From: Deltaproteobacteria bacterium RBG_13_43_22
GTDB lineage: Bacteria; Desulfobacterota; RBG-13-43-22
Assembly: GCA_001797675.1 (NCBI GenBank)
Contig: MGQB01000001.1
Span: 137,968-201,967 of the forward strand
Direction: 5' to 3'
Length of the DNA stretch: 64,000 nt
Shown: piece after piece, positions 10,413-57,527 of the stretch
Position numbering within the stretch: the first letter of the stretch is position 1
How the letters are laid out: each line of letters opens with the position of its first letter
Made by a program: the position numbers and the translations under genes
Notes under the pieces: generated by a model
Database searches by the model: none
Told to the model about the DNA's origin: nothing
What the model saw: only the letters and a program-made list of their open reading frames with translations

Positions 10413-13298
10413 ATGATAAAGTTGAAGATCATTCAAAAACCTCATTTTCTGCTTGATCTCCTCAGGTCCTTATTTTATAATTCTTTACGCAAAGACTCTT
10501 CAGGGAATATCTCTTTCTCCCCTCATAAGGCCAAAATGAATTGGCAGACCGTAACTTTTTTCAATTATTTCAAATTTAGTAAAGAGGAATGGATAAAGGA
10601 TCTATCTTCTCATCTTTTCCTGGCACTCTTGGTCATTTTTAAGTTCTGGGACTATTTAAATCCCTATGGTGAGTTCTATTGGGCGGGCGACTTTCTTGAA
10701 GTCACCCCGATGCGGGACTATTTTTACCACAACTTAAAGAAAGGAATCCTGATCCTTTGGGATAGCCATATTGCCACCGGAATGCCTTATCTGGCTGCAG
10801 ATTATGGAGTTTTTTACCCGATAGATTTGCTTATGGGGATTCTGGGTCAAGATTATTTTGTCCCTTATCGACTCGCATTAATTCATGCTTTGCATTTTTG
10901 GTTGGGTGGTCTATTTACTTTTATCTATACCCGCCAATTAGGCCTTTCCCGTTTCCCTGCTCTGACAAGCTCCATTTGTTTTATACTGGGAGGTTTTTTG
11001 CTTGGACATGCCTATCATCGAAATGTAATACAAACCTATATCTGGTTTCCTTTAATCCTTTATTTTTTAGACAAAGCCCTTCATCACCGTAATGCCATCT
11101 GGGCTATGGTGGCTGGACTAATTCTGGCTGTATCTTTCCTGGCCGGTCATGCCAATTTTTTTTATTTTATCATCTTATTTTTAGCCTTTTATTTCCTTTT
11201 AAGGGTCTACCTGGGAATACAAGAAAAAAATTGGAGAAACATGACCGTGGACGCCTCTTATTTCATGATCATGGGTATCTTTTGCCTGGGAATCTCAGCG
11301 ATTCAACTGTTTCCTGTTGTTTTCACCAGCCTGAATACCCATCATGCATCTTTTCCTTTCGAATGGAAGGCCCAGCTTCCCTTTCCGCTTTTCAATCTGA
11401 TTCATTTCCTCATCCCGGATTATACCCAATGGGCGGCTTTTGATATTGGGGAGCAATACGGATACATAGGCGTCCTGCCCTTACTCTTTGCTATCTGGAG
11501 TATTTTTCAAATGAGAGATAAAAGGGTCATTTTTTTTGCATTGGTTGCTTTTTTTGCCTTTATCGCCTCTCTGGGTGAACTCACTCCCTTATATAAAATC
11601 CTTTATCATTTCCTTCCCGGTCTTAACCAATTCCGTATCCCGAGCCGGTTTAATGCCTTGATCATCTTTCCGCTGGCCGTTTTGGCCGGCTTCGGATTTC
11701 AATTCTTTCTCGATCAAAATAATCGTGAACAACCGACCAGAATAAAGGAATCTCTTAAGGGCTTCCTTTTTCTTTTTTTGGGATTAGGCCTTATTATCTT
11801 TTCTTATTTAGAGTTCTTTTACTTGCCTTCTCTCGAATCAACAAAACTTTCTTCCGGCCCTTGGGGATTATTACGGAAAGGTTTTTTTTGGTTTTTATTC
11901 CTCTGGGGGGCCTCCTATTGTTTGATCTCCCGAAGGAACCAAAACCGTTCCACCCTTTTATTAAAAATTTTCATGGTTGTTTTGATTAGCATCGATTTGC
12001 TCTTCTTGGGCCGAATTGAAGGCGGCGGATCACCAACCGATCCGGCCCTTATTTCTCCTCAGGCCCAAACAATCATCAAGGAGATAAAAAAAGGGGCCTC
12101 TCCTTTCAGGATCAGCAATCGAGAAAAACAATTATCTCCGTTGTCTTTATCCCGGGAAGGTATCTCCGATTATGACGCAGATAACTGGGTGGGTTATATT
12201 GGGACGATTGTTCCTCAAGAATATCTGGGGATCTATTTTCTCATTAACAAAAACCCTGCGCTGCTGGATCTTATAAATGTGAGGTATTACATCGGTTCCA
12301 AGCTAAAAATGAATACCGGGCCGAAGGAATTCAAGATCGGGGGGACCGGTGAGGATAAGGAATTTTTCCTGAACTATCCGATAAAAATATCCAGTCTGAT
12401 TTTATATACTTCCTTAGCGAATTCCACCTCTATCCCTCAAGGGCAAACCGTCGCCAGGATTCATTTTCAAAAAAAGGACGGCTCCATCCGACCAATATCT
12501 ATTCGAGCCGGCATAGAAACGGCAGAGTGGGCCATTGACCGCCCCGGTTTGCGGTGTTTTCATCAAAAAGCCCAGGTTGCCGAATCCTGGGAGATCTCCC
12601 ATGAAGGCTACCAGGGGCATGCTTATATTTTTAAAACGACCTTCTCAGTCCCGATAGAGATTTCAAAAATCCGCTTTGAATACCTCGGCGATCAAGGGAG
12701 CCTGATAATTAAAAAAATGTTAATTAATAATTTGGAGATCGATGCAATATACCCGGAGATAATAAAAGAACGGTTTCAATGGATCGCCCCGAATATTTAT
12801 AATAATAAATTTTGCCTTCCAAGAATTTTTATGATCAGCAGGGCCAAAGTCATTCCCGAAGAAAAAGTATTGTTGAAAAACCTGGAACAGTTGGATCCCC
12901 GGGATCATGTTTTATTGAACCACTTGCCTCCGGACTATCTTGAACCGGTGGATTCCGGTTTTTCAACCCAGGAAGCTGAAATAAATCATTATTCTTCCGG
13001 CAAGATAAAAATTACCACAAAGGCCAGGGTCGATAAATTTTTAATCCTTAGTGATACTTATAGCCCTTATTGGAAAGCTATGATTGATCAAAGAGTCATG
13101 CCCATCTTAAAAGCCGATTACGGCCTCAGAGGCCTATATGTGCCCAGGGGAAATCATCAAGTAGAATTTTCGTTCCATTTCTACCCATTTTATTACGGGT
13201 TGGCCATTAGCTGTTTCAGCCTATTGATGCTCATTATTACTTTCTGTGGCCTATTTATCCGAAACCGGATCCGCCATGAAAAACCTTCTTGTGATTAA
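10413..13298 (+). CDS. YfhO-like polytopic membrane protein (GT-C family candidate)
   Basis: 961 aa. It has a multi-helix N-terminal half, a large extracytoplasmic domain and a final C-terminal helix. The ending YSPYWKAMIDQRVMPILKADYGLRGLYVPRGNHQVEFSFHFYPFYYGLAISCFSLLMLI matches the YfhO-family C-terminus as I remember it. Confidence 0.6.
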   Translation: MIKLKIIQKPHFLLDLLRSLFYNSLRKDSSGNISFSPHKAKMNWQTVTFFNYFKFSKEEWIKDLSSHLFLALLVIFKFWDYLNPYGEFYWAGDFLEVTPMRDYFYHNLKKGILILWDSHIATGMPYLAADYGVFYPIDLLMGILGQDYFVPYRLALIHALHFWLGGLFTFIYTRQLGLSRFPALTSSICFILGGFLLGHAYHRNVIQTYIWFPLILYFLDKALHHRNAIWAMVAGLILAVSFLAGHANFFYFIILFLAFYFLLRVYLGIQEKNWRNMTVDASYFMIMGIFCLGISAIQLFPVVFTSLNTHHASFPFEWKAQLPFPLFNLIHFLIPDYTQWAAFDIGEQYGYIGVLPLLFAIWSIFQMRDKRVIFFALVAFFAFIASLGELTPLYKILYHFLPGLNQFRIPSRFNALIIFPLAVLAGFGFQFFLDQNNREQPTRIKESLKGFLFLFLGLGLIIFSYLEFFYLPSLESTKLSSGPWGLLRKGFFWFLFLWGASYCLISRRNQNRSTLLLKIFMVVLISIDLLFLGRIEGGGSPTDPALISPQAQTIIKEIKKGASPFRISNREKQLSPLSLSREGISDYDADNWVGYIGTIVPQEYLGIYFLINKNPALLDLINVRYYIGSKLKMNTGPKEFKIGGTGEDKEFFLNYPIKISSLILYTSLANSTSIPQGQTVARIHFQKKDGSIRPISIRAGIETAEWAIDRPGLRCFHQKAQVAESWEISHEGYQGHAYIFKTTFSVPIEISKIRFEYLGDQGSLIIKKMLINNLEIDAIYPEIIKERFQWIAPNIYNNKFCLPRIFMISRAKVIPEEKVLLKNLEQLDPRDHVLLNHLPPDYLEPVDSGFSTQEAEINHYSSGKIKITTKARVDKFLILSDTYSPYWKAMIDQRVMPILKADYGLRGLYVPRGNHQVEFSFHFYPFYYGLAISCFSLLMLIITFCGLFIRNRIRHEKPSCD

Positions 13299-13519
13299 AA
13301 GGGGGGAATATTTGATTGACCAAATTGAATAAATATGTCAATGGACACCTTATTGTGGTTTATCAGGAGGGGTTAAGACTTATCATAGGGGACTCTTGGA
13401 GAGTGAAATAGTATCCACCTCCTTCCCCTCCATATCAAAATGAAATGGTGCGCAGGAGAAGGAACTTCGAGGAATATTTATTTCTCTAAGAACTGAATCA
13501 TTCTTAAGGAATTACCATC

Positions 13520-14131
13520 ATGAGCATTAATCCAAACAGGGAACTGGATGACATTCTCCGATTTTACGGAAAGAAGAATACTTTTTGGAATAGGATACAG
13601 TTTCGTTTTCTCTACCTTTTCCGCTTCATCCTGGCCAGACTGACGTTTTTCTGTCCGATTGTCGGTTTAAGAGTTCTCTTAACCCGCTGGCGTGGCGTTT
13701 GTATCGGTAAAGATGTTTACCTTGGTCATAACATTGATTTTGATTATGTGTTTCCATCTAAGATTACCATTGGAGATCATTCCGGTATAGGAAGTGGTTG
13801 TTCAATTTCCGCCCATCACAGTATCCCCATGAACACACCCCTGGCTCAACTATTTCCTCGAACGGTCAAGCCCGTCCATATCGGTCGCGGAGTAGACTGT
13901 AATCTGCATGTGATTATTCAACCAGGGGTAACCATCGGGAATTATACCGTCGTTGGCAATGGAGCGGTTGTCACCAGAGATATTCCGCCGATGACTTTTG
14001 CCGCCGGCAACCCGGCCAAACCTATTTCCGATTTAAGCGAAAAACTCCGTCCGTACATCCCGGCCGATGAATTTGAAGCCTTGCTGCAGGAACGTCGGGA
14101 GCGGTTTAACTGGCCCCCTCAAGGAAAATAA
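13520..14131 (+). CDS. Hexapeptide-repeat (left-handed beta-helix) O-/N-acetyltransferase, WcaF/WbbJ-like
   Basis: 203 aa. Hexapeptide repeats: IGDHSGIGSGCSISAHHS and IGRGVDCNLHVIIQPGVTIGNYTVVGNGAVVTRDIPPMTFAAGNPAKP. First gene of a tightly spaced operon. Confidence 0.75.
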   Translation: MSINPNRELDDILRFYGKKNTFWNRIQFRFLYLFRFILARLTFFCPIVGLRVLLTRWRGVCIGKDVYLGHNIDFDYVFPSKITIGDHSGIGSGCSISAHHSIPMNTPLAQLFPRTVKPVHIGRGVDCNLHVIIQPGVTIGNYTVVGNGAVVTRDIPPMTFAAGNPAKPISDLSEKLRPYIPADEFEALLQERRERFNWPPQGK

Positions 14132-14133
14132 TC

Positions 14134-15465
14134 ATGAAAAAACCTTATTCGGGCATCATTTGGAATCCGATTGAGCTTTTTTCTCATCAAGAATTGACTT
14201 CGGAGATGATTCCGGAGTTATTGGTTCATCAGTTGAACCGAGCAAAAATAGGTTCCCCTTTTTATAGAAAAAAATTGGTCGACTTAAAGATTCCGGACAA
14301 ACGAACTATTCTGGATTTATATGCGACTCTCCCCTTTACCGACAAATCGGAATTACTTGCCGATCAACAACAATTTCCCCCTTTCGGCAGCAACCTTCCC
14401 GTCCGGGAATCAAAGATACAAAGGATCAACAGGACCTCAGGCACAACCAGTGAACCCTTATTGTTAATTCTTACCTCAAAAGACGTCATGAACACCTATG
14501 AATGCGGCGCACGCTGTTTTTATGCCTCCGGTTTACGCCGCCATCATACGGTCATCCATTGCATGAACTATTGCATGTGGGCCGGAGGGTATACCGACCA
14601 TGGGAGCTTGGAGCATCTCGGCGCTGCGGTAATCCCCTTTGGTGTGGGAAATTCAAGATTGCTCATTGAAACCATCCTTCGGATTCGTCCCCAGGCCCTG
14701 CACGCCACACCGTCCTATCTGACCAAACTGCAGGAGGTGCTTAACCAGGATTTTGGCCTAGCACCGATCGAGTTGGGCCTGCAACTCGGCCTTTTTGGAG
14801 GAGAAGCCGGAATCCAGGATTCTAACTTTAGGCGGCAGATTGAAAAAATCTGGGGGTTTAAAGCCATGAATGCGAATTATGGAAGTGCGGAGGTTCTAAG
14901 CATGTTCGGCGCCGAATGTCATGAACGGGCCGGCCTTCACTTTATGGGCCAGGGGGTCCTCTATCCAACCTTGATCGACATGACCAGTGCAAAAGATATC
15001 CCTATTACCTCAGGGGCGGTGGGAGAATTGGTTTTGACTAATCTTGTCAAGCAGGCCCAGCCGCTTATTCGTTATCGAACCCATGATCTTATTGAAATCC
15101 TTTCTACAGACCGGTGTCTCTGCGGGCGGGGTAGTTTTCGATTTAAAGTAATTGGCCGCAACGATGATATGATAATTATTAAAGGTATTAATGTCTTTCC
15201 CACAGGCATTCAAAAAATAATCAATGAAAACCTTGACTATCTGAACGGCCAATATGTTATACTGATCAATAAAATCGACCCCATTGATCGGTTTGTGGTC
15301 CGTGCGGAGGTTCGTCCTGAAATGTCGGAGCCAAGGGACTTCAGGTCCAAGCTGCAATCGGCCTTTGTGGCCCATCTGGCCGTTCGCCCGGAAATCGAAC
15401 TGATTGCCGAAGGAACTTTGCCCAGGACGGAAAACAAGACCAAACGCCTACAAAGAATCCTTTAA
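14134..15465 (+). CDS. PaaK/CapK-family adenylate-forming ligase (phenylacetate-CoA ligase-like)
   Basis: 443 aa. Motifs: NRTSGTTSEPLL (P-loop-like AMP motif), NYGSAEV, IRYRTHDL and GRNDDMIIIKGINVFPTGIQ. Starts 2 nt after the upstream stop. Confidence 0.8.
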   Translation: MKKPYSGIIWNPIELFSHQELTSEMIPELLVHQLNRAKIGSPFYRKKLVDLKIPDKRTILDLYATLPFTDKSELLADQQQFPPFGSNLPVRESKIQRINRTSGTTSEPLLLILTSKDVMNTYECGARCFYASGLRRHHTVIHCMNYCMWAGGYTDHGSLEHLGAAVIPFGVGNSRLLIETILRIRPQALHATPSYLTKLQEVLNQDFGLAPIELGLQLGLFGGEAGIQDSNFRRQIEKIWGFKAMNANYGSAEVLSMFGAECHERAGLHFMGQGVLYPTLIDMTSAKDIPITSGAVGELVLTNLVKQAQPLIRYRTHDLIEILSTDRCLCGRGSFRFKVIGRNDDMIIIKGINVFPTGIQKIINENLDYLNGQYVILINKIDPIDRFVVRAEVRPEMSEPRDFRSKLQSAFVAHLAVRPEIELIAEGTLPRTENKTKRLQRIL

Positions 15466-15474
15466 GGAAATACC

Positions 15475-16371
15475 ATGGACGAAATACGAGAACAGGAAGT
15501 TTATGTTTCAGAGATAGCCCAATTTCTAAATTCCAGTTTCAAGGGGGAAGATTTTATCATCAAAAAACCGGCAACGATTGATGATCTGTCTGATCATGCT
15601 ATGATCTACCTTGAAGCCATGAATCCTGAGGTGCAGGCTAAAATCGATAAACATCAGGCGGTCCTGATTATTGCCGACAGCCTATTCCCTGTTAAAAACG
15701 GGGCTGTCCTTGCAACCGATCGTCCCAAGCTGTCTTTTGTCCGGGTTTTAAGGGAATTTTTTATTGAGCAAAACCTGCCCGTTATCCATAAAACCGCCAT
15801 AGTATCGCCGCAGGCCTCCATTGGAACTAACGTGACCATTGGTGAATATTGTCTCATCGGTTCACAGGCCGTCATTGACAACGGGAGTGAGATTTTGTCC
15901 GGCGTTGTAATCGCCGGCAAGGCTAAAATCGGGAAAAACTGCTTAATTAAAGACCGGGCGGTAATCGGAAGCGAGGGATACGGATTTGTATTTGACGAAA
16001 ATAACAAACCGATACATTTCCCGCAGTTCGGACAGATCATTATCGGTGATGCGGTTTGGATCGGATCCAATACCACCATTGAGCGGTCGGCTTTCAAGGA
16101 TACCATAATCGAGGATAATGTCAAAATCGATGACTTGGTCCACATTGGAAACGGATGCCGGATTGAGAAAAACACTATGATAACAGCCGGTACGATCATC
16201 AGTGAAAATGTTCATATTGGTTCCAACTGCTGGATCATGCCCAACGTATCCATAAGGAACAATATTGCGATAGGTTCTAATGTAACGGTGGGCATGGGCA
16301 GCGTAGTAGTGAATGATCTGCAATCCCCCGGGGTTTACATCGGGAATCCGGCACATTGGATAAAAAAATAA
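15475..16371 (+). CDS. LpxD-like left-handed beta-helix N-acyltransferase (atypical, short)
   Basis: 298 aa. LpxD-like core GSEGYGFVFDENNKPIHFPQFGQIIIGDAVWIGSNTTIERSAFKDTIIEDNVKIDDLVHIGNGCRI. Ends at ...PGVYIGNPAHWIKK without the C-terminal helical extension of E. coli LpxD. No lpxA, fabZ or lpxB neighbours. Confidence 0.65.
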   Translation: MDEIREQEVYVSEIAQFLNSSFKGEDFIIKKPATIDDLSDHAMIYLEAMNPEVQAKIDKHQAVLIIADSLFPVKNGAVLATDRPKLSFVRVLREFFIEQNLPVIHKTAIVSPQASIGTNVTIGEYCLIGSQAVIDNGSEILSGVVIAGKAKIGKNCLIKDRAVIGSEGYGFVFDENNKPIHFPQFGQIIIGDAVWIGSNTTIERSAFKDTIIEDNVKIDDLVHIGNGCRIEKNTMITAGTIISENVHIGSNCWIMPNVSIRNNIAIGSNVTVGMGSVVVNDLQSPGVYIGNPAHWIKK

Positions 16372-16394
16372 AGATCAATCAACAACGAGAGATT

Positions 16395-17504
16395 ATGAAT
16401 ACCCCCATCAAACCCATTCCTTTCAAAGAATTGGTATCCCCTTTCATCAAAAGAAAGTTGGATGAACTGCGAAGTCAATATGGGGAGAATTCTTCCCACT
16501 ATCTCGGTTTGGCCAGACAATATCTGCAAGTCCCTCTTGAAAACATTGTCTATCAAGATGAACGGGACAGGCATTATGATGCCCATACGGATTTTGTGGT
16601 TGACGATAAACCCATACCCGGTCTCGAACGCCTTTATCGTCGGGGGTTGGTCATTGAACCGACCATGATCTGCGCGGCCCACTGCCGGTATTGTCTGCGG
16701 GCCAATTATAAAACGCCTTACACGCTGTCCGAAGAAGAGCTCTTGGGAGTAGCCAAATTTTGTGGGTCCCAAGAACGAAAAGCCGTCCTTCATGAAGTTC
16801 TGATTACCGGGGGAGACCCCTTAATTATTCCCAATCGTCTGGCCTTTCTGGTTGACGCCCTGGTTGAATTCGCGCCCAACATCAAAATCATGCGAATTGC
16901 CACTCGGCTTCCCCAACAAGCCCCGAGCCGAATCACCAATACAGTCTATAGAATTTTTCAGAAACGGGAAGGCGTTCGATTTGAATTAGCCACACAGATC
17001 AATCATCCGGTGGAACTGTCTTTCCCGGAAACCGTTGATATTATTAAGACCTTCCGGAATATGGGCGTGGTGATCTACAGCCAAAATGTTTTATTGAAAG
17101 AGGTGAATGACGACCTTCCCGTGCTCATTGATCTTTACGATGCCATAAGAGATTTAGGTATTGAAGCCCATTATCTTTTTCATTGTATCCCCTTGCGGGG
17201 CATGAGTCATATGAGAACCTCCGTGGAAAAAGGACTCCGGTTGACCAATGCCTTAGTCAACAGCGGCCATATTTCAGGACGGGCCAAACCGATGTTTGCC
17301 GCCATGACCGATATCGGCAAAATTACCTTTTATGAAAATACAATCCTCCAAAAAGACCCGACCCACAACTCCCTTTTATTGCAAAGTCAATATTTAGATA
17401 AGGAAAGAAAGACCTGGAATCCTTCTTGGGTTTTGCCTTCCTCGGCGGAAGTGGATGAAAACGGGCGCTTGCGGATCTGGTACCTGGACGGCAGGGATGA
17501 TTAA
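16395..17504 (+). CDS. KamA-family radical SAM/PLP aminomutase (lysine 2,3-aminomutase-like)
   Basis: The ORF track opens at a TTG at 16356, overlapping the upstream gene. I prefer the ATG at 16395 (MNTPIKPIPF...). Motifs: CAAHCRYCLRANY (CxxxCxxC) and VLITGGDPL. Length and layout are typical of the KamA/EpmB/AblA family. Confidence 0.8.
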   Translation: MNTPIKPIPFKELVSPFIKRKLDELRSQYGENSSHYLGLARQYLQVPLENIVYQDERDRHYDAHTDFVVDDKPIPGLERLYRRGLVIEPTMICAAHCRYCLRANYKTPYTLSEEELLGVAKFCGSQERKAVLHEVLITGGDPLIIPNRLAFLVDALVEFAPNIKIMRIATRLPQQAPSRITNTVYRIFQKREGVRFELATQINHPVELSFPETVDIIKTFRNMGVVIYSQNVLLKEVNDDLPVLIDLYDAIRDLGIEAHYLFHCIPLRGMSHMRTSVEKGLRLTNALVNSGHISGRAKPMFAAMTDIGKITFYENTILQKDPTHNSLLLQSQYLDKERKTWNPSWVLPSSAEVDENGRLRIWYLDGRDD

Positions 17505-17513
17505 CATCTGATC

Positions 17514-18341
17514 ATGGATAAACATCCGGGGGGTCCCAAAATTTGTTTTCTAACCATGGACCTGGAAAATGACTGCGGAGGACGTATCGGACCGGTCTTT
17601 GATACTATTAACGAAAAAAATATTCGCAAGTTGATAAATTTTATCAATAATCAAAACGTTCCGTTAACCTTATTTATTACCGGCCGACTCTTTGAAGAAA
17701 AAAGGAGGGAACTCCAATTAATTCAGGAGGAAATAAAAACGATAGAGTTTGCCCTCCATTCCTACTCTCATCCCAATCTTTTGAATGATTATTCCGAGGA
17801 AATTGAAAAGGCCGTATCAGCCTACAAGGATTTTATGGGAGTGCCCCCTTTGGGCTACCGGGGACCACAAGGAAAAATTTCCAAGGTAGATTTTGAATGT
17901 CTTAAAAAACACCGCTTTCAATACGATTCCAGTATCATACCCACCATCCGGCCCGGGGTTTTTAACAACAGAAAAATGCCCAAAGGACCTTATTACCTGG
18001 ACGAGTACAACTTATGGGAAATTCCTTGTTCGGTTTTCCCCTTTACCGGCATTCCTATGGGTTTAGGACATCTCCGCCTGCTGGGACCAACAGTTACAAA
18101 ATTTCTTTTTTCATTTTTACCGCTGCTGCCGGTCATCGTATTCGTCTTTCATCTGCATGATATTATTCAAACAGAACATGCTGATAAACTGCAGGGTGCT
18201 TGGAATTTCTTTTATCGAAGGAATGTTGACCAGGGTTTCAGTCTCTTTGGCTTTGTGATCGAGGATCTTAGGAAAAAAGGTTATGGTTTTGATCTGATGA
18301 AAAATGCTCAAGCTAATCCAGTGCAGAACTTTCAACTTTAA
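17514..18341 (+). CDS. Polysaccharide deacetylase family protein (CE4/NodB-like)
   Basis: 275 aa. Motifs: FLTMDLENDCGG and ALHSYSHPNL (H-x-x-x-H type metal motif). Last gene of the operon. Its 3' end overlaps the convergent gene by 29 nt. Confidence 0.6.
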   Translation: MDKHPGGPKICFLTMDLENDCGGRIGPVFDTINEKNIRKLINFINNQNVPLTLFITGRLFEEKRRELQLIQEEIKTIEFALHSYSHPNLLNDYSEEIEKAVSAYKDFMGVPPLGYRGPQGKISKVDFECLKKHRFQYDSSIIPTIRPGVFNNRKMPKGPYYLDEYNLWEIPCSVFPFTGIPMGLGHLRLLGPTVTKFLFSFLPLLPVIVFVFHLHDIIQTEHADKLQGAWNFFYRRNVDQGFSLFGFVIEDLRKKGYGFDLMKNAQANPVQNFQL

Positions 18342-19323
18342 TTTTCTTCAGATTCAATCCCTCACTCCACAAATAGATCAATCCTAACAGAATTGCGGGA
18401 AAAATATCAATAAACCAAAGAATAATGGCATAACTTTGGGCATATTGGGAAGGAATTCCAAGAGCCATAAGACCTAAAGCACAGGCCAGATGAAAAGTGC
18501 CAACATAGGCCGGTGCCGAAGGAAGAGCGACACCAAGAGCCAGAACGGCTTGAATAAAAACCGCGGCCATCAATGGGAGCTGAAGATTGAAGGCTGAGAA
18601 TAGAATATAAGTCACCAGGACATAGATACTCCATATCACCAAAGAGCTCAACATTACGATCCCGATTTCCTTATAATTGTTCAAAATCGAAAGTCCTTCA
18701 GAAAAAGAGGTTATCATTTTTATAATCTTTTCAATAACCGAAGAGGGCAAAGGCGAGAGGATTTTTTTAAGGATATTATTAATGGATACGGTTTTAATTT
18801 TTAGTATTATTAGAAAAAAAAGCAGACTACTACAAAAAAACATAAAAAGATAACCGCCCACCCTGATCCCTTTCAAGCTGAGACCCTCATGGCCCATCTT
18901 GACATAGGGGAAAAAGAGTAGGGTCAGAGAAAAAAGAAGAATAACTATAAATCCGTCAAAGAGGCGTTCGACGATAATGGTGGCAAATGAAGAGGATTTG
19001 CTGATCTTTTCTTTTTTGCCGATGATATAGGCACGGACCAATTCCCCAAAGCGTGCCGGTAAAATGATATTGGCCATAAATCCAATAAAAGCGGCGGGAA
19101 GCAAACTTAATAAGGGAATTTTTTTAATCGGAGAAAGCAAATATTTCCAACGGAAAGACCGAAAAAAAAGAGCCAGCACATTGGCAAAAAACAAGGGAAT
19201 GACATACCAATAGTCGGCCTCCGCCAGGGCCTGGAATAGTTCCTGAGGGTGAATATTTCGGAGGAACAGAAAGACAAAAACGGCACTGACGGCCAACCCG
19301 AGTAAATAGTGAAATTTTCTCAT
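18313..19323 (-). CDS. UPF0104 / lysyl-PG-synthase-TM-region-like flippase-like membrane protein
   Basis: 336 aa with about 8 helices. The N-terminus MRKFHYLLGLAVSAVFVFLFLRNIHPQELFQALAEADYWYVIPLFFANVLALFFRSFRWKYLL is typical of this family, which is often found beside GT2 genes. Confidence 0.65.
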   Translation of the reverse strand: MRKFHYLLGLAVSAVFVFLFLRNIHPQELFQALAEADYWYVIPLFFANVLALFFRSFRWKYLLSPIKKIPLLSLLPAAFIGFMANIILPARFGELVRAYIIGKKEKISKSSSFATIIVERLFDGFIVILLFSLTLLFFPYVKMGHEGLSLKGIRVGGYLFMFFCSSLLFFLIILKIKTVSINNILKKILSPLPSSVIEKIIKMITSFSEGLSILNNYKEIGIVMLSSLVIWSIYVLVTYILFSAFNLQLPLMAAVFIQAVLALGVALPSAPAYVGTFHLACALGLMALGIPSQYAQSYAIILWFIDIFPAILLGLIYLWSEGLNLKKIKVESSALD

Positions 19324-19334
19324 GGAATAATATG

Positions 19335-19465
19335 GATGAATTCGTAAAAAGTTAGAAAATTCCTCTTGGAGTTTTTCCGGAGAAGACCGGAATCCAGTCC
19401 CGTTGGCGGGATGGTTCCTGGCTTTCGCCGGGGTAACGGCCTTAACGACTTTTTACGAGTCCATC
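19335..19465. mobile_element. MITE-like palindromic element, copy 1 (TCGTAAAAAG-type inverted termini)
   Basis: The left end GATGAATTCGTAAAAAGT (19335-19352) matches the reverse complement of the right end GACTTTTTACGAGTCCATC (19447-19465) at 16 of 18 positions. The element has no ORF and sits in a 176-bp gap between two minus-strand genes. Confidence 0.55.
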
Positions 19466-19499
19466 GATCTTGACAAGTTTAAAAGAAGTAACCCAGCCG

Positions 19500-20927
19500 T
19501 CAAATTTTAAACATTTTCAAACCTGCTTTTGCCTTTCGTTTAAATTCATTCCAGGATCCGGTCTTTAAAATCTGCTGAAAGATATAGGTCGGCCTGAAAT
19601 AAAATTTTTTGTAGGCCAACCGGAGCATTTCAAACAATTCGTCTCGATTTAGATTTTCTTCCCAAAGAGGAGGCAAAAAATCGGCACTGGGGTTTTCGGC
19701 AAATTCCTTCCAATAATCTCGTTTGATAATTCCTCGTTCTAATCCTAATTTGTATAACTCCGTAGCCGGGAAAGGGGAGGTCAGAGAAATGTGAACAAAA
19801 TCCGGCCTGATCTTCCTGCTAAATCCGATCGTTTCCAAAATCTGCTCCCTGGTTTCAAAAGGATTACCCAACATGAAATAGGCCAAGGTTGTCAGGCCGG
19901 CTTTCCTGGCGGCTTGAAAAGCAGTTTCTACCTGATTCAGAGTAATGCCTTTTTTTAAAACCTTTAATATCTCATTGTTTCCAGATTCCACCCCGAAATG
20001 GATGCGGTCGCAGCCGGCGGATTTCATTTTTTCCATCATCTCCAGATCGATCAGATTAACCCGGGCCCGGACATCCCAGAAAATTTTTAATTTTCTGGAT
20101 ACGATTTCCGCACAGATATCCAATACCCTTTGACGATTGACGGTGAAGGTGTCATCATATAAAATAAACTCTGCGATCCCCATTTGAATGCATTCTTCCA
20201 TCTCATCAACCACATTTTTGGCGGAACGAAACCTAAAACTCTTGCCCAGGTGCGGCCGGTCGCAAAAGATACATTTGTAGGGACACCCTCGGCTGGTCAT
20301 GATGGTCGTAACCGGATTACTCCGGGCCAGAACGGACCAATATTTTTCGACGGGAACCAAGCTCCTAGCTGGATGAGGCAACTCATCTAAATTATCGATC
20401 AAAGGTCTGGAGCCCGTATTAACGAGCTTTCCATCTTTCTTGAAAACCAATCCTTTGATAAGGGAAAGATCGTCATTCCGATTCAAGCCATTTAATAATT
20501 CGGTAAAAGGGACCTCCCCCTCTCCTAAAATAAGAAAGTCGATCTCAACCTGCTCGATACTCTCTTCCGGGTATATGTTGACATGAGGGCCGCCTAAAAC
20601 AATGATCGTCTTCGGATCAGCCTTTTTAACAATTCTGGCGACCATCATCACGTCGATCAAGGTGAACGTCATGGTCTGAATGCCGACCACATCCGGATTT
20701 CTTCTAACGATCTCTTTTTCTATGTCCGCATAAGTCAATTCCTCCACCTGAGTGTCTAAAACTTCAATCTCAAAATCGGTATGACTCAGAGCATAAGAGG
20801 CCACATATAATAATCCCAAGGGGGGGTTGTAACCGGCTTTTTCCTCCCCTTCCAGTTCATCGGGGAAATTGGTTTTAATCATATGGAAATCCGGAGGATT
20901 GATAAGAAGTACTTTCATGTCCGACAC
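19500..20927 (-). CDS. B12-binding domain radical SAM protein (class B)
   Basis: 475 aa. N-terminal cobalamin-binding-type Rossmann region (KVLLINPP..., IVLGGPHV). Radical SAM motif MTSRGCPYKCIFCD. Confidence 0.8.
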   Translation of the reverse strand: MSDMKVLLINPPDFHMIKTNFPDELEGEEKAGYNPPLGLLYVASYALSHTDFEIEVLDTQVEELTYADIEKEIVRRNPDVVGIQTMTFTLIDVMMVARIVKKADPKTIIVLGGPHVNIYPEESIEQVEIDFLILGEGEVPFTELLNGLNRNDDLSLIKGLVFKKDGKLVNTGSRPLIDNLDELPHPARSLVPVEKYWSVLARSNPVTTIMTSRGCPYKCIFCDRPHLGKSFRFRSAKNVVDEMEECIQMGIAEFILYDDTFTVNRQRVLDICAEIVSRKLKIFWDVRARVNLIDLEMMEKMKSAGCDRIHFGVESGNNEILKVLKKGITLNQVETAFQAARKAGLTTLAYFMLGNPFETREQILETIGFSRKIRPDFVHISLTSPFPATELYKLGLERGIIKRDYWKEFAENPSADFLPPLWEENLNRDELFEMLRLAYKKFYFRPTYIFQQILKTGSWNEFKRKAKAGLKMFKI

Positions 20928-20942: not shown

Positions 20943-21797
20943 TTATTTTAGGAGTTCTCTTCTTAATTTGGCGATTTGATCAGAAACGAGTCCAAAAAAG
21001 AAAATGAGTATGCCGATTAAAAAAATAATTAATGCGGATACCGATCCTCTGTTCAATAAAAAATAGGTAAACAAATAAAATAAAATTCCTATGGAAGCAA
21101 GAACAAAACTGACGGGGATGAATATCCGTAAGGGATTAAACAACGTTATGATTCTGAGAACCGACAACAAAGATTCAAACCCGGTTTTAACGGTCACCGA
21201 GCTCTTACCGATCCTTTTCCTTATTTTGATGTCCATAAATTTTACGTTATAATTATCACTTAAAAAAGCGAGAAGACTGGTCATGGAAAAGGAGAAACGG
21301 TCCGGACAGATCGACAAATATTTTAAAATAATCTCCTTTTTATATACCCGGAACCCCGAATTAATATCTGGAATCTTTTGTCGGGTCAAGTAATTGGCCA
21401 GAAAACCCAAAAGCCATTTTCCGGGCATTCTCCACAGACTGCTGTGAATGATCTGATTACGTGAACCGACAACCAGATCATAATTATCCATATACTGTAG
21501 GAGAGGTTCTATTTCAGACGGATCATGCTGGCCGTCCCCGTCCATAATCAATACCTGATCGGCCTTGGCTTCTTTAATGCCGCACTTTAAGGACGCCCCA
21601 TATCCTTTGTTAACCGGATTCCGGATTAATCTAACGCTAAACTGCAAAATGATCGCTGCCGAATTATCCAAAGAACCATCATCCACGACAATAATTTCCC
21701 AATCTTTCCCCTGGACGACAGAAATCAATTCGTTTAAGACCTCCCCAATAACCGCTTCTTCATTAAAAACCGGGATGACAATGCTTAACTTAGGCAT
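20943..21797 (-). CDS. GT2 polyprenyl-phosphate sugar synthase (ArnC/GtrB/DPM1-like) with two C-terminal TM helices
   Basis: 284 aa. Motifs: LSIVIPVFNEE, VVDDGSLDNS and IMDGDGQHDP. C-terminal helices IFIPVSFVLASIGILFYLF and ALIIFLIGILIFFFGLV. Confidence 0.8.
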   Translation of the reverse strand: MPKLSIVIPVFNEEAVIGEVLNELISVVQGKDWEIIVVDDGSLDNSAAIILQFSVRLIRNPVNKGYGASLKCGIKEAKADQVLIMDGDGQHDPSEIEPLLQYMDNYDLVVGSRNQIIHSSLWRMPGKWLLGFLANYLTRQKIPDINSGFRVYKKEIILKYLSICPDRFSFSMTSLLAFLSDNYNVKFMDIKIRKRIGKSSVTVKTGFESLLSVLRIITLFNPLRIFIPVSFVLASIGILFYLFTYFLLNRGSVSALIIFLIGILIFFFGLVSDQIAKLRRELLK

Positions 21798-22026: not shown

Positions 22027-25000
22027 CTAATCAATCGTAATAGTCGTCAACAAAAATTTGTCCTTGAAGGAATAGGGGCTCGGATAAGAAATTTTCAACC
22101 GCCTTTCGGAATACCTGGAATCCCAGAGACCAAGGTATATTTTATAGGTACCGGCGGTAATGTCGGCCGGAATTTTTATTTGAAAATCTTTCTTAATGAT
22201 TTCTCCGGGAATAAGGGAATCTAAGGTTTTTTCACCTTCCTGAATTAAAAGATGCCCTTGAAAGAGCATTTGGTCGTTTTTTAAAACGTGGAGGAAAACA
22301 TCATAATCCAGATCCATTTTTTCAAGCCCCTTCCAAAAAAGGGACCCTTTGAGGATGTCGCCCCCTTTGCCCTTTGTTTGTTCGAGAGAATATCCCATCA
22401 ATTGAATTTTGCCGGAAAAAACGGCTCGACTGGCCGTTTGGGGGAAAGGAAGATTGTCGATTCTCTTCTTAACAACTTCTGCGGCAACCGGTTCATTTAT
22501 TTTTTGATAACGGTCATATAAGGTTTTCAGTTTGGATGGGTTGTTTTGATTTAACGCTTCATATTTTTTTAAAAAAACCATGCCGTCCCGGTGATGCCCG
22601 GTTTGTATTAATAGGTTTCCCAAATTCCAACCAACATCATTATAGTCCGGGCTAAGGTTGAATAATTTTTGAAATAAATCTATTGCCGATTTATAATCGG
22701 CATGCGCCTGATAAGTGCTGGCCATGGCGGAAAGAATTTGCTTCATATTTTCTTCCATTGCTTTTTTGAGGTCCAAATAAATATCAACTTGTTTTATGAT
22801 GAATTGGACTTCCTTATGGAAAGAAAAAACCCGGAATTCAAACTGGCCCACTCTGGGATCATTGGTAATATTAAAAGAGATATTTTGAAGGCCTCCGTTG
22901 GACTTTTGAATTTCATTATTGTCAATCACTTTCTCCGCTATTTGAAAAAAGCCTTGGGGAGTATGTTTTAAAATATCAACCCGTAATGCGGGACCAACTC
23001 CGGCAGCCGATGATACCGCCGATAAACGAAAATGAACATTAAAAAAGCCTTGAGGAAAAACGTCTCTGCTCCATAACTTAAAATAAAGGAGTCCATCATC
23101 TCCTCTATTATATTCGCCGATAAAACCTTCTTTTGAAATCCTGTTTACCTTTTCCGAATAAGTGCATTGATCCGGTAAAACATAATGATGAGTTGATTTT
23201 ATTTGAATCAACGGCAGATAAAACCCAGTGAAATCGCAGAAAAGTTTGAGCCAGGCCTCACCGGTTAAGGTACTTTTTGCCAAAGCAAAATAATTGGACA
23301 AAAAGAAAGGATCCTTTTCTTCAACAGACTTGAAATAATTCAAAGCGTCGACCTTCTTGCCGTCCGCAAAACAGGCGGATCCTAAAAGGGCAAGACTTTC
23401 CAGGTTTTCAGGGTCCTGTTGTCGGGAGGTCTCAAAAAATTGAACGGCCTTTTTAGGCTGTTTGAATCGCAGCCGGTTCAAGCCCATTTCCACTGGATCG
23501 GCCACCCATTTGACATATAGATTTCCTTTGCTTTGAGAGAAAGCCTTAAGTTGGTAAATATTTTTAATGAAGGGGAAAGCCGGGGAGGGTTCCATTTCAA
23601 GAATTTCAATTTGGCCCGATTCCATTTGCCTTTCCTTTTTGGCGGACCCGCATTTGATTTTAACTTTAGCCTGATTTTCACTATATACTATTAATTGGAT
23701 TTGTTTAAGTTTTTTAGTTGTTCTTAAAACTCTTACCGCTTCAGAATACGGTTTTACCACAAAAATACTGCTGCTTTTTTCATATTCAGGATGATTTAAA
23801 AAAACTACTTTATATGAACTATCAGCATCTTCAATAAGCGCAGGAAATGATATTTTATGTTTTATAGGACCTGCCTTTGTAGAATATACTCTTAGGGCCG
23901 GATCAAGAAAGTCGGGAAACTTGAGGCTGCCGTTTTTTTCAATTCCCGTCTCTTGGTGTTTTAAATCAAATTCCTTGATCAAGGTAAAGTAACGTTGCAG
24001 CGATAATAAATTTTCCCCTTCCGGTTTGATAGGCCTATGGGTCCAGAGACTGAAATATCTATCTCCCTCCAGGGAACTAATTACCAGGAAATCGCAGTTA
24101 TTTTTATAATATTCAATCGGCTTCAGATACTCAAAATCGATTTTTGAAAATTTGATACTATATGGGGTATACCCATCCAGTGCAACTACACTTTCAGAAG
24201 GTAGATTTTGGTTTAACCATTTTTCTGCTAAATCTCTGTTGTCATCCAGCCAATAATAATAATCGATCTCAATAGTCTTCCAGGTGGGCCATACCAACAA
24301 ACCGAGAAATAGAATCGTCATCACTGTTTTTTTAAAACGCCAGGAATACCAGTAGTGGAGGAATTTATAAAAAAAGGCGGCGGCCATCAAAGCCAAAAAG
24401 GGGATCATAACCACAACATCTCTTTCCCCAAACCGCCTTCCCCACAAGCCCACCAGAAAAAAATAACCGATTGGGAAAGAACAAATCATCAGAACTTCTT
24501 TGTTTTTTCGCAACAAGTGATATGTGATCCCGATTATGGTAATTAAAATCAGTATGCCACCAAAACCATCCATCAGCGTTTGAATAGCCCAGGCAAATCG
24601 TGACCCTTGAGGGCCCTCGATCCAAGAACCTGTCCAGGGAAGGGATTGTTTAGCCATTTCCAAGGTTTTACCAAAGATCCTGTCTACCGTACTGGGGAAA
24701 TTAACAAAAAGACCGGGGGCCCCAATGACAAATCCTGCAAGTGAGGTCGTTATAAATAATAGTATTCGTTTTAATAAAGATATCCGAACTTTCTTAAACG
24801 ATTCATCAAAGAATAGGTAACAGAAAGAAATGAAGAAAGGAATGCAAGTCAATATCCCATTAGGCTTAGTGGTAAAGGTTAAACCGAAAAAAAGCCCTCC
24901 GAGAGCAAAAAATAAGGAACGTTTATGGGTGAGGATGAAATAAGAGAACATGAAACTTAATGTAGCCATAAACGCCAGAGGAGAATCCATTTCCAGATAA

Positions 25001-25464
25001 TGGGCTTGGGCCACCGATAGAGGGGTTACAGCAAACAAGGCTGCGGCCATTAACCCGATATGTCTGTTCTGAAATATTCTTTTCCCTAAAAAATAAAGTA
25101 ACCATATATTTAATGTACTAAAAATAACCGAAGTAATTCTCCCGATGAGGACCATATCAGGATCAACTTCAGTTTGAATCTTGTAAAAACTGAAGATAAT
25201 GCCGAACAAGAAAGCAATTTTATTAATAACAACATATACGATAGCAATGCAATAATTATATACAAAATACCAAGTTTCCAGACCCACCTGTGAAAAATCA
25301 CCTTGGATCATTTGATAGATTATTGTGCAATCTCCCTGTTCATCAGGATGAAGGGCAGTGGTGGAATTCAGACCCCACATTATCCCCCATAAACGGAAAA
25401 CTAAACCTATTACTATTATTAAGAAAAGCAGGTAGGTGTACGATTTTGAGACTTGATTTTTCAT
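22027..25464 (-). CDS. ArnT/PMT (GT39)-like GT-C membrane glycosyltransferase with C-terminal TPR repeats and beta-rich module
   Basis: 1145 aa. First-loop motif ALHPDEQGD after an N-terminal helix. About 12 helices. TPR-like segments AVQFFETSRQQDPENLESLALLGSACFADGKKVDALNYFKSVEEKDP and YQAHADYKSAIDLFQKLFNLSPDYNDVGWNLGNLLIQTG. Confidence 0.7.
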   Translation of the reverse strand: MKNQVSKSYTYLLFLIIVIGLVFRLWGIMWGLNSTTALHPDEQGDCTIIYQMIQGDFSQVGLETWYFVYNYCIAIVYVVINKIAFLFGIIFSFYKIQTEVDPDMVLIGRITSVIFSTLNIWLLYFLGKRIFQNRHIGLMAAALFAVTPLSVAQAHYLEMDSPLAFMATLSFMFSYFILTHKRSLFFALGGLFFGLTFTTKPNGILTCIPFFISFCYLFFDESFKKVRISLLKRILLFITTSLAGFVIGAPGLFVNFPSTVDRIFGKTLEMAKQSLPWTGSWIEGPQGSRFAWAIQTLMDGFGGILILITIIGITYHLLRKNKEVLMICSFPIGYFFLVGLWGRRFGERDVVVMIPFLALMAAAFFYKFLHYWYSWRFKKTVMTILFLGLLVWPTWKTIEIDYYYWLDDNRDLAEKWLNQNLPSESVVALDGYTPYSIKFSKIDFEYLKPIEYYKNNCDFLVISSLEGDRYFSLWTHRPIKPEGENLLSLQRYFTLIKEFDLKHQETGIEKNGSLKFPDFLDPALRVYSTKAGPIKHKISFPALIEDADSSYKVVFLNHPEYEKSSSIFVVKPYSEAVRVLRTTKKLKQIQLIVYSENQAKVKIKCGSAKKERQMESGQIEILEMEPSPAFPFIKNIYQLKAFSQSKGNLYVKWVADPVEMGLNRLRFKQPKKAVQFFETSRQQDPENLESLALLGSACFADGKKVDALNYFKSVEEKDPFFLSNYFALAKSTLTGEAWLKLFCDFTGFYLPLIQIKSTHHYVLPDQCTYSEKVNRISKEGFIGEYNRGDDGLLYFKLWSRDVFPQGFFNVHFRLSAVSSAAGVGPALRVDILKHTPQGFFQIAEKVIDNNEIQKSNGGLQNISFNITNDPRVGQFEFRVFSFHKEVQFIIKQVDIYLDLKKAMEENMKQILSAMASTYQAHADYKSAIDLFQKLFNLSPDYNDVGWNLGNLLIQTGHHRDGMVFLKKYEALNQNNPSKLKTLYDRYQKINEPVAAEVVKKRIDNLPFPQTASRAVFSGKIQLMGYSLEQTKGKGGDILKGSLFWKGLEKMDLDYDVFLHVLKNDQMLFQGHLLIQEGEKTLDSLIPGEIIKKDFQIKIPADITAGTYKIYLGLWDSRYSERRLKISYPSPYSFKDKFLLTTITID

Positions 25465-30777: not shown

Positions 30778-31469
30778 ACATTCAGCTGCTCGGGAAAAAG
30801 AAAACACCGATTATCCTGGGCATAACCATCCCCTTTATCTTCTGGTCGCTTTCTGAAATACTCCCCTGGATGGCTTCCGGGATAAATCGTATAGGCTATC
30901 GATATACCCAAAATAGTTCCAATAATTTCTCGGGCAGGTTAACCATAATCGGCAAGAATTCTACAGAACGAAAATATATAAATGATCTGAAATTTCCTTT
31001 ATCGGGAAAATCTGACCCCCGCATAGTATACGATCATTTTCAACTGCAGTTGACGGGTCTGATTGAGGTTGAGAATCCTGATATTTACTGGATCGGAACC
31101 GAATCGGACGACGGGTCCTGGATTTGGATTGATGGAAAAAAGATTCTGGATAATAGGGGCCTTCATTCGCGCCAGGAAAAAATTGATTTTGTTTATTTAC
31201 AAGAAAGGAGCCATTTCATTGAATTGAAATTTTAAAATCTTATGGGAGAAGCATACTTTGATGTATTTTGGGTCCTTCCAGACGGCACCCATAAACCTCT
31301 GTCATTTTTCTCTTTCCCCTATAGCAGGACCGTTCATTATCTCTTGGGGGCAGCCAATATTTTTTTTAAAATCACCCAATATTGGTTTTTTTTCTTTATC
31401 CCTTTTCTGTTATATAAGCTATTGTTCCCTAACAAATCCAATATTGAAAATAATAGTAAGACTCGCTAA
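30774..31469 (+). pseudogene. Membrane-anchored PA14-domain protein interrupted by an in-frame TAA at 31233-31235
   Basis: ORFs 30774-31235 and 31242-31469 share one frame. The PA14-like sequence spans the stop: TESDDGSWIWIDGKKILDNRGLHSRQEKIDFVYLQERSHFIELKF-stop-NLMGEAYFDVFWVLPDGTHKPL. The start overlaps the upstream stop (ATGA). Confidence 0.6.
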
Positions 31470-47108: not shown

Positions 47109-47132
47109 CAAATGAAAAACCAACCGGAAAGA

Positions 47133-57523: not shown

Positions 57524-57527
57524 GATA

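Follow-up and report, generated by a model that had tools for sequence, protein, structure and literature searches.

A five-gene operon of an uncultured deltaproteobacterium contains a widespread ligase, acyltransferase-like and aminomutase-like gene trio of cell-surface glycan loci

We analysed a 64,000-nucleotide stretch of DNA (the window) from Deltaproteobacteria bacterium RBG_13_43_22 (GenBank assembly GCA_001797675.1, contig MGQB01000001.1, positions 137,968 to 201,967), in which an operon at window positions 13520-18341 encodes a KamA-like radical S-adenosylmethionine (radical-SAM)/pyridoxal phosphate (PLP) protein, a PaaK-like adenylate-forming ligase, two left-handed β-helix (LbH) proteins, and a carbohydrate esterase family 4 (CE4) deacetylase. 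The N-acyl substituents of amino sugars set the surface charge, antigenicity, and phage and complement recognition of bacteria, and the enzymes that install aminoacyl substituents are, to our knowledge, largely unknown. We describe here how known chemistries, those of KamA-type mutases, ANL superfamily ligases, and LbH sugar N-acyltransferases, are joined in an undescribed and widely distributed cassette.

Organization of the operon

The operon consists of five co-directional open reading frames (ORFs) separated by successive gaps of 2, 9, 23, and 9 nt (Table 1). These ORFs match exactly those of a preliminary description of this DNA, which had reported five same-strand genes with gaps of 2-23 nt, and the motifs quoted there were all found in the translations, namely CAAHCRYCLR and ITGGDPL in the KamA-like protein, TSGTTSEP, RYRTHD, and GRNDDMIIIKGINVFP in the ligase, and HSYSHP in the deacetylase. 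The frame of the KamA-like gene is open from a TTG at 16356, and the records at ENA and JGI call its start at the ATG at 16395. Since an identical contig is present in two independent metagenome assemblies (ENA ERZ27256988 and JGI 3300031949), and syntenic relatives retain the five-gene layout at 79-83% identity (L039 and L042; homologous loci are cited by such numbers below), an assembly artefact was ruled out. A helicase encoded in the window matched sequences of MAGs named Deltaproteobacteria, Desulfobacca, and Thermodesulfobacteriota, which places the organism close to uncultured Thermodesulfobacteriota.

Profile searches against Pfam and NCBIfam upheld the superfamily call made in the preliminary description for each of the five proteins, and none of the five reached the curated equivalog cutoff of a named NCBIfam family. 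Because all of them score below these cutoffs, the five proteins are, as judged by profile, true superfamily members that are orthologous to nothing characterized. An Rfam scan of the whole window at the gathering thresholds returned zero structured RNAs or riboswitches, and a promoter and terminator consensus scan of positions 13200-19500 gave no signal over noise, with no convincing intergenic terminator within the operon.

Table 1. Genes of the operon, followed by its neighbours in the window
Feature	Coordinates	Strand	Remarks
Small LbH acetyltransferase gene	13520..14131	+	203 aa; Pfam Hexapep; accessory
PaaK-like (ANL superfamily) adenylate-forming ligase	14134..15465	+	443 aa; core trio member 1
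LpxD-shaped two-domain LbH, putative N-acyltransferase	15475..16371	+	298 aa; core trio member 2
KamA-family radical-SAM/PLP aminomutase-like protein, unnamed subfamily	16395..17504	+	369 aa; core trio member 3
CE4 (NodB-fold) deacetylase, cytoplasmic-type	17514..18341	+	275 aa; Polysacc_deac_1
YfhO-family GT-C glycosyltransferase	10413..13298	+	Pfam YfhO 102 bits; 221-nt gap to operon; candidate extracytoplasmic transferase
MprF-type flippase-like membrane protein	18313..19323	-	LPG_synthase_TM 197 bits; TIGR00374 104 bits, cutoff 43
B12-binding radical-SAM protein, HpnJ-like	19500..20927	-	B12-binding and Radical_SAM; HpnJ 252 bits, cutoff 578
Glycosyltransferase family 2 (GT2) protein, polyprenyl-phosphate sugar synthase-like	20943..21797	-	Glycos_transf_2 124 bits; AglJ, PgfS, ArnC, and PpgS all under cutoffs
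PMT/PMT_2 GT-C glycosyltransferase with C-terminal TPR	22027..25464	-	PMT_2, PMT, and TPR matches

The adenylate-forming ligase

The ligase comprises the Pfam domains AMP-binding and AMP-binding_C_2, and its best structural match is the Bacteroides PaaK-like enzyme 4R1L (198 bits). The TSGTTSEP and RYRTHD motifs, the hinge GRNDDMIIIKG (pattern GRxDDMIIIKG), and the C-terminal NKTKR with the catalytic Lys all align with 4R1L, so that the ANL motifs are intact. Its closest structures are CoA-forming PaaK-type enzymes (4R1L and 2Y27) together with 2-hydroxyisobutyryl-CoA synthetase, at 139-198 bits, and AjiA1 (6WUQ) follows at 52 bits. Against the PaaK model TIGR02155, however, the ligase scored 214 bits, far from the cutoff of 646.3. 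This score, the absence of paa catabolic genes, and the different partner genes ruled out orthology with true phenylacetate-CoA ligases. The ligase homologues in the loci described below are 43-57% identical to that of the window.

The LpxD-shaped LbH protein

The larger LbH protein gave an AlphaFold2 (AF2) model of high confidence (predicted local distance difference test, pLDDT, 95.9), whose top 25 PDB matches were all LpxD structures with query-normalized template-modelling scores (TMq) of 0.68-0.84 over about 307 columns. Foldseek superposed it on E. coli LpxD at TMq 0.80-0.84 over the N-domain and the LbH, whereas LpxA, which has no N-domain, reached only about 0.4-0.6. The protein thus keeps the nucleotide-binding-type N-terminal domain and the LbH architecture of LpxD. 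It covers positions 3-308 of the 345 in the LpxD model and stops short of the C-terminal helices that dock the acyl carrier protein (ACP), and the median length of its family is 298 aa, compared with 341 aa for E. coli LpxD. Its scores remained under the cutoffs of both LpxD models, PRK00892 (200.3 bits, cutoff 207) and TIGR01853 (196.6 bits, cutoff 242.5).

The alignment made by eye in the preliminary description, in which QIAHNV of E. coli LpxD corresponds to HIGNGC and the C-terminal helices are missing, proved right, and the column of the catalytic H239 is Asn in the window protein. Among 50 LbH homologues, this column is occupied by G, N, S, Y, A, Q, C, or K in 38 and by His in 12, and the position three residues before it is His in 32 and Gln in 17. 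As that description had also remarked, lipid A genes are not nearby: the annotated neighbour genes, both in the window and in the homologous loci, include none of lpxA, lpxB, lpxC, and fabZ. The identity of the protein as a true LpxD was therefore rejected on its scores, its catalytic residue, and its context.

We also used E. coli AcpP as a phmmer query for carrier proteins against every ORF of 50 aa or longer from 35 loci and found none, in a single-sequence screen that divergent carriers could escape. Since the N-domain is kept, the ACP-docking helices are missing, and ACP-like ORFs went undetected, the sequence and the model point to a nucleotide-sugar as the acceptor and to a donor that is not bound to ACP.

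In four loci, a tandem second LbH gene encodes the canonical His within QIGHN or QVGHN (L007 8180-9070, L013 4649-5551, L022 8185-9066, and L043 9088-9972); there, the copy next to the KamA-like gene is the one without the canonical His, and the extra copy keeps it. The arrangement looks like a duplication followed by a division of labour.

The KamA-like protein

The AF2 model of the KamA-like protein (pLDDT 91.6; predicted template-modelling score, pTM, 0.90) has 2A5H as its top PDB fold match with E = 1.9e-19, twelve orders of magnitude better than generic radical-SAM folds, the next fold being at about 4e-7. We then compared its residues with 2A5H by hidden Markov model (HMM) alignment and with annotated AblA, BlsG, EpmB, and AblA-like-2 references, and counted their conservation over 64 sequences of the subfamily; the 2A5H numbering used recovers the published landmarks C125, C129, C132, R134, and K337. 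As a result, the cysteines of the CxxxCxxC motif (C93, C97, and C100, equivalent to C125, C129, and C132), Arg102 (equivalent to R134, the α-carboxylate residue), and Lys309 (equivalent to K337, the PLP lysine) were invariant in 64/64 sequences, and R102 and K309 line up with the equivalent residues in all of the reference types. The GGDP motif common to KamA/AblA is present, and Asp306 is likewise invariant in the subfamily.

The two lysine-binding Asp residues are replaced. At the D293 column, which is Asp in all four reference types, the subfamily has Val (36), Ile (25), or Leu (3) followed by an invariant Pro, and the D330 column is Met in 64/64, within the MTDIGK loop before the PLP lysine, which is two residues shorter, as in BlsG. 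The subfamily is also without the canonical N-terminal segment and without the Cys-rich Zn-site C-terminus, and it has a C-terminal domain of its own, WNPxW...WYLDG.

The profile scores place the protein outside the named families. It obtained 131.1 bits against the KamA family model TIGR00238 (cutoff 199.2) and 115-137 bits against six KamA-family NCBIfam models with cutoffs of 199-650; among these, the models for AblA (117 bits, cutoff 525), EpmB (115.5 bits, cutoff 369), BlsG, glutamate 2,3-aminomutase, and AblA-like-2 have cutoffs of 369-650. Its identity is 23-28% to the reference AblA, BlsG, EpmB, and AblA-like-2 sequences and 39-91% inside its own clade, so that it does not group with EpmB or AblA. 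More than 850 homologues were retrieved at E <= 1e-10, the majority of them 53-65% identical and unnamed or automatically labelled "lysine 2,3-aminomutase". The scores, the active-site residues, and the gene context ruled out orthology with AblA, EpmB, BlsG, and Eam; ablB, efp, and epmA had no match in Pfam/NCBIfam searches of the scanned ORFs of at least 150 aa (window positions 1791-47070 and a few beyond).

From its sequence and modelled fold, we conclude that the protein is a KamA-fold, PLP-dependent enzyme predicted to act on an α-amino acid. With V/I/L-Pro and Met in place of the two lysine-binding Asp residues, an amino acid other than Lys, Arg, or Glu is the probable substrate, and the side-chain pocket may be small or hydrophobic. 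The preliminary description had proposed a β-amino acid as the product, which agrees with the KamA-type family and the catalytic residues; the particular candidates β-Lys, β-Arg, and β-Glu are, in contrast, unlikely with both distal Asp residues replaced.

More distant members of the subfamily (39-46% identical) occur in Streptomyces, Micromonospora, Pseudofrankia, and a Lachnospiraceae metagenome-assembled genome (MAG), with the same pocket and without the ligase/LbH pair. The two actinomycete loci viewed in detail (L024 and L027) are both polyketide synthase (PKS)/nonribosomal peptide synthetase (NRPS) clusters, and the KamA-like gene of L027, from Micromonospora, adjoins the gene for a stand-alone adenylating enzyme. 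Thus, in two unrelated settings the product appears to be passed to an adenylating enzyme, which fits a β-amino acid building block. The actinomycete clusters (L024, L027, L033, and others) contain either a ketosynthase III, a stand-alone adenylation-domain enzyme, a reductase, and a type I PKS, or a cytochrome P450 and an NRPS of condensation-adenylation-thiolation-thioesterase organization. An attempt to link them to a known product gave no match; such clusters could disclose the amino-acid substrate of the subfamily.

Conservation of the ligase, LbH, and KamA-like trio

A scan over one genome per GTDB species yielded 32 loci, and gene combinations were tallied by tblastn, ORF clustering, and HMM searches in the 27 loci with a KamA-like protein at least 50% identical to that of the window. 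The ligase adjoins the KamA-like gene in 23 of the 27, and in about 19-20 of these an LbH gene lies between or beside the two, the gene order then being almost always ligase, LbH, aminomutase; of the four loci without an adjacent ligase, two are truncated contigs. The trio is present in Bacteroidota, Thermodesulfobacteriota, Bdellovibrionota, Omnitrophota, Planctomycetota, Calditrichota, Bacillota, Patescibacteria, and Aminicenantes, and hence in at least nine phyla.

The gene combination is thus conserved in other genomes, in a reduced form. The preliminary description had treated all five genes as one functional unit; what recurs is the trio of ligase, LpxD-like LbH, and KamA-like protein with an interchangeable deacetylase, and this is the conserved unit, whereas the small O-acetyltransferase-like gene is lineage-specific. 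The five-gene set as a conserved unit was accordingly discarded.

The trio is located in O-antigen, capsule, or nonulosonic-acid loci, most of which are of the Wzx/Wzy, ABC-transporter, or nonulosonic-acid type. Its neighbours encode glycosyltransferases of family 4 (GT4), Wzx, Wzy, the Wzt ABC transporter, Bac_transf initiating transferases, PglF-type 4,6-dehydratases, DegT aminotransferases, and AsnB-like amidotransferases, and four loci contain a complete legionaminic-acid-like set (NeuB, NeuC, CMP-transferase, and a PtmE-like nucleotidyltransferase). Among the hosts is a cultured bacterium, Geomonas oryzisoli (complete genome CP076723.1, locus at about 2,738,266-2,759,129), in which the gene string reads Wzx, small LbH, Wzy, GT4, PIG-L, ligase (43% identical), LbH1, LbH2 (44%), KamA-like (55%), methyltransferase, GT4, Bac_transf, more genes, PglF-like dehydratase, and Wzi. 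Literature searches on the gene set or on the KamA-like subfamily found no publication; the O-antigen locus of Legionella Sg6 was considered as a match and set aside, as its aminomutase is the unrelated glutamate-1-semialdehyde aminomutase.

In an Omnitrophica MAG and a Desulfovibrionales MAG, three conserved Pfam-less proteins (about 443, 372, and 400 aa) and an Fe-alcohol dehydrogenase accompany the ligase and the KamA-like gene (L009 6624-9070 and 12449-13657; L020 7366-8500 and 11068-13500). In L020, the three Pfam-less proteins appear, from the gene content, to replace the LbH.

Deacetylases and the small LbH protein

The CE4 protein matched Polysacc_deac_1 (PF01522) with 45.1 bits against a gathering score of 23.1, and it contains TMDLEND with the N-terminal D-x-E-x-D, HSYSHP with the metal-binding HxxxH, and GYRGP. 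Its best NCBIfam match was the XrtA-system polysaccharide deacetylase (50.9 bits, cutoff 276) and its best PDB match HpPgdA (3QBU); it was not assignable to an ArnD, PgdA, PdaB, or XrtA-type equivalog.

A CE4 gene accompanies the trio in seven loci including the window, lying directly 3' of the KamA-like gene in L039, L040, and L042 and beside the trio block in L006, L012, and L016. In five others (L007, L013, L022, L032, and L043), a PIG-L/LmbE gene lies directly 5' of the ligase, and some of the remaining loci carry DegT aminotransferases instead of a deacetylase. CE4 and PIG-L are non-homologous and alternate against the same trio block; from this non-orthologous replacement, the unmasking or creation of a sugar amine would belong to the pathway, and the pattern suggests a "de-N-acetylate, then re-N-acylate" logic.

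The small LbH protein, whose N-terminal segment is hydrophobic, belongs to the WcaF/Maa/LacA type, and its best NCBIfam matches, heptaprenylglyceryl-phosphate O-acetyltransferase, WcaF, and LacA, were all far under their cutoffs. L039 and L042 have it at the equivalent position, and the other loci contain it only in isolated cases (L012 and L016). It is an accessory gene particular to the lineage of the window and lies outside the conserved core.

Proposed pathway and its alternatives

On balance, we lean towards the view that the trio equips an amino sugar of a cell-surface glycan with an uncommon N-acyl substituent, most likely by swapping the N-acetyl group for an unusual, probably β-, amino acid. 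We infer all of the pathway steps, their order, the product, and the acceptor. Starting from a free L-amino acid, which would probably be neutral, small, or in some other way unlike Lys, Arg, and Glu, the KamA-like enzyme would shift the α-amino group to C3 and thereby make a β-amino acid. The ligase would then adenylate the carboxylate of this β-amino acid, most likely to form a CoA thioester; no carrier protein was found encoded nearby. Finally, the LbH protein would move the β-aminoacyl group onto an amino sugar that presents a free amine and is linked to a nucleotide or possibly to a lipid. This amine would come either from a DegT aminotransferase or from de-N-acetylation, by CE4 in the window and by PIG-L in other lineages. 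The small LbH protein may serve to cap the new amine or to place an O-acetyl group on the sugar. In the lineage of the window, the polyprenyl-phosphate sugar synthase-like GT2 protein, the flippase-like protein, and the YfhO/PMT GT-C proteins would export the sugar for extracellular attachment.

N-Aminoacyl amino sugars are established in bacterial glycan chemistry, and N-linked α-amino acids are known (PMC10609480). The amide linkage of an activated β-amino acid to an amino sugar, as put forward in the preliminary description, gains from the glycan context of the homologous loci, which fits a role in N-acylation. With less than even confidence, we further propose that the KamA-like subfamily naturally catalyses the 2,3-amino shift of an amino acid that is not Lys, Arg, or Glu, for example that of alanine to β-alanine or of another short-chain amino acid, and that with the ligase and the His-less LbH it would install cationic or zwitterionic β-aminoacyl groups on surface amino sugars, with polyprenyl-phosphate/GT-C export in the lineage of the window; a small or neutral substrate is suggested because the distal pocket appears closed and hydrophobic.

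Several points weigh against a β-aminoacyl transfer of this kind. A review of bacterial glycans (PMC10609480) does not include β-aminoacyl groups in its list of N-acyl substituents. The aminomutase activity itself is an extrapolation, because the KamA-like protein scores 131 against the 199 of its family model and the N-terminal region and the Zn-site C-terminus are missing. Seven trio loci (L004, L009, L010, L011, L015, L017, and L023) have no visible deacetylase or aminotransferase in the sequence available. Furthermore, the usual substrates of PIG-L and CE4 enzymes are glycosides, lipid-linked sugars, and polymers rather than UDP-sugars, which is a poor fit with a UDP-binding acceptor site of the LpxD type. 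The ACP screen, with its single query sequence, could also have missed divergent carrier proteins. As for the LbH protein, most trio-type members are without the catalytic His of LpxD and none has an alternative conserved His, and for this reason its mechanism may differ from that of LpxD, or it may not perform the aminoacyl transfer at all. Some LbH sugar N-acyltransferases work without a conserved base.

The missing His also agrees with an alternative in which the ligase itself forms the amide from the acyl-adenylate, without a CoA thioester, and the LbH protein caps the aminoacyl amine or acylates elsewhere with acetyl- or short acyl-CoA. PaaK-like enzymes of the AjiA1 and BagE/FevW types work without CoA, and the structural relatives of the ligase include AjiA1 (6WUQ) and BagE/FevW (NCBIfam), to which the direct formation of esters or amides is ascribed. 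In several loci, moreover, a second, His-retaining LbH or a GNAT protein adjoins the trio, so that the acyl transfers may be split, and capped N-acetyl-aminoacyl groups do occur on bacterial amino sugars (PMC10609480). We nevertheless consider direct amidation unlikely: the ligase is much nearer to the CoA-forming structures (139-198 bits) than to AjiA1 (52 bits), and the co-variation of the LbH gene with the KamA-like and ligase genes is much tighter than would be expected of a generic acetyltransferase.

The polarity of the amide could also be reversed, with the ligase adenylating the carboxylate of a sugar (a uronic or nonulosonic acid), the amino acid or β-amino acid from the KamA-like enzyme serving as the amine nucleophile, and the LbH protein and the deacetylase acting elsewhere on the sugar. 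Amino acids amide-linked to the carboxyls of uronic acids are common in O-antigens (PMC10609480), several trio loci encode nonulosonic-acid pathways, and some encode AsnB-like amidotransferases. This arrangement would, however, leave an LpxD-type N-acyltransferase and a de-N-acetylase unexplained as constant or recurrent partners, uronic- and nonulosonic-acid pathways are absent from the window locus and its close relatives, and the actinomycete members of the subfamily feed adenylating enzymes, which argues that it is the carboxylate of the product that is activated. We therefore regard the reversed polarity as quite improbable.

Still less probable is a separation of the CE4 gene and the convergent genes into an HpnI/HpnK/HpnJ-like module, in which the GT2 protein adds N-acetylglucosamine, the deacetylase unmasks it, and the B12-binding radical-SAM protein rearranges it, with the trio making a free or lipid-bound N-acyl β-amino acid unrelated to glycans: HpnJ is indeed the best match of the B12-binding protein (252 bits), the GT2, B12-binding radical-SAM, flippase-like, and CE4 genes are syntenic in three related contigs, and the KamA-like subfamily serves secondary metabolism too, but the HpnJ score is far under the cutoff of 578, the CE4 gene lies inside the trio operon, 9 nt downstream, and goes with the trio where the B12-binding radical-SAM gene is absent (L003, L005, L012, L016, and L040), and the context of the trio is overwhelmingly that of glycan assembly.

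Relation to known systems

Compared with KamA/AblA (2A5H), BlsG, glutamate 2,3-aminomutase, and EpmB, the KamA-like protein shares the CxxxCxxC and GGDP motifs, the equivalents of R134 and K337, and the fold. Unlike KamA/AblA and EpmB, it is partnered by a ligase and an LbH protein rather than by AblB, EF-P/EpmA, or fermentation genes. The ligase has the two-domain ANL architecture and the adenylation and hinge motifs in common with PaaK, CapK, and F390 synthetase-like ligases; in contrast to PaaK, it is paired with an aminomutase-like gene and is not accompanied by paa catabolic genes.

The proposed order of a deacetylase followed by an LpxD-fold N-acyltransferase is also the logic of LpxC/LpxD, and the LbH superposes on LpxD at a TMq of about 0.8. 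Here, however, the deacetylase is of the CE4 or PIG-L type, the LbH has neither the ACP-docking helices nor the catalytic His, lpxA, lpxB, and fabZ are not nearby, and the presumed donor is an aminoacyl thioester instead of a hydroxyacyl-ACP. The logic also matches that of NodB/NodA, and in NodB/NodA and ArnD/NaxD-type pathways a CE4 enzyme deacetylates a sugar on the cytoplasmic side ahead of its further processing and GT-C transfer. The present loci likewise place a cytoplasmic-type CE4 protein beside an acyl-transfer step, but in them there is no NodA-type acyltransferase, the CE4 protein is below the ArnD cutoff, and a putative supply module for a β-amino acid, absent from those systems, is attached. 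The Arn, Francisella GalN, and mycobacterial PpgS systems combine a GT2 polyprenyl-phosphate sugar synthase-like protein, a flippase-like protein, and a GT-C protein, as does the lineage of the window.

β-Amino acids made by KamA-family enzymes are adenylated and amide-linked, sometimes to an amino sugar, in the biosynthesis of the β-lysyl-gulosamine of streptothricin, the β-arginine of blasticidin S, and macrolactam starters. The present cassette differs from these natural-product pathways in the use of an LbH transferase without a carrier protein or NRPS, and in its location in cell-envelope glycan loci of mostly anaerobic, non-actinomycete bacteria.

If the trio does decorate amino sugars in this way, a portable three-gene cassette would represent a new reaction set in glycan biosynthesis and a previously unrecognised, phylogenetically widespread class of glycan decoration. 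The short list of substrates of radical-SAM aminomutases would grow, and LpxD-fold enzymes would gain a role beyond lipid A that depends neither on ACP nor on the canonical catalytic His. Uncultured anaerobes of the Thermodesulfobacteriota, Bacteroidota, Planctomycetota, and Omnitrophota frequently carry the cassette. Its current labels, "lysine 2,3-aminomutase", "phenylacetate-CoA ligase", and "LpxD", are mis-annotations that mislead metabolic reconstructions from MAGs. With Geomonas oryzisoli as a cultured carrier, the hypothesis is directly testable.

Neighbouring genes in the window

The closest relatives of the window are L039, with a KamA-like protein 79% identical, and L042, a 1-Mb contig with an LbH protein 83% identical. 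Both share with it a nine-gene syntenic block composed of the small LbH, ligase, LbH, KamA-like, and CE4 genes and, convergently, the flippase-like, B12-binding radical-SAM, GT2, and PMT-TPR genes. The YfhO gene directly precedes the small LbH gene in L039, as in the window, and lies farther upstream in L042. The delivery of the sugar by GT-C enzymes, as envisaged in the preliminary description, is compatible with this syntenic YfhO/PMT set in the lineage of the window, by analogy with Arn-type or three-component glycosylation systems, but most trio loci use other routes, and from the comparison of loci GT-C/polyprenyl-phosphate delivery would be confined to that lineage.

The CE4 gene and the flippase-like gene, which converge, share 29 nt at their 3' ends (18313-18341), a geometry kept in L039 and L042. 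The gene for the B12-binding radical-SAM protein, which may, from its family, rearrange or methylate a sugar, lies between the GT2 and flippase-like genes, and weaker relatives of it were found in the trio loci L008 and L009.

Elsewhere in the window, very large membrane proteins, which are unusually concentrated here, combine a PMT_2 GT-C region with C-terminal F5/8 type C (discoidin) lectin domains (4991-7429, 25994-28783, and 35553-38267), and PA14, GH99/WbsX-like, and AZOBR_p60025-family "cell surface glycopolymer formation" proteins are also encoded (30774-31235, 34084-35532, and 32813-33958). These gene contents suggest an extensive extracytoplasmic glycosylation system in the organism. 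Two Pfam-less giant ORFs lie at 1791-4919 (minus strand, 1042 aa) and 7787-10366 (plus strand, 859 aa), the latter with a weak match to the LA_3751/LA_3752 putative glycosyltransferase family. Because the G+C content is about 0.40-0.46 in the glycan region and higher, 0.49-0.55, at 48-60 kb, the glycan island may be compositionally distinct or horizontally acquired. The region at about 47000-60000 contains housekeeping-type genes, including those for split glutamate-synthase-like proteins.

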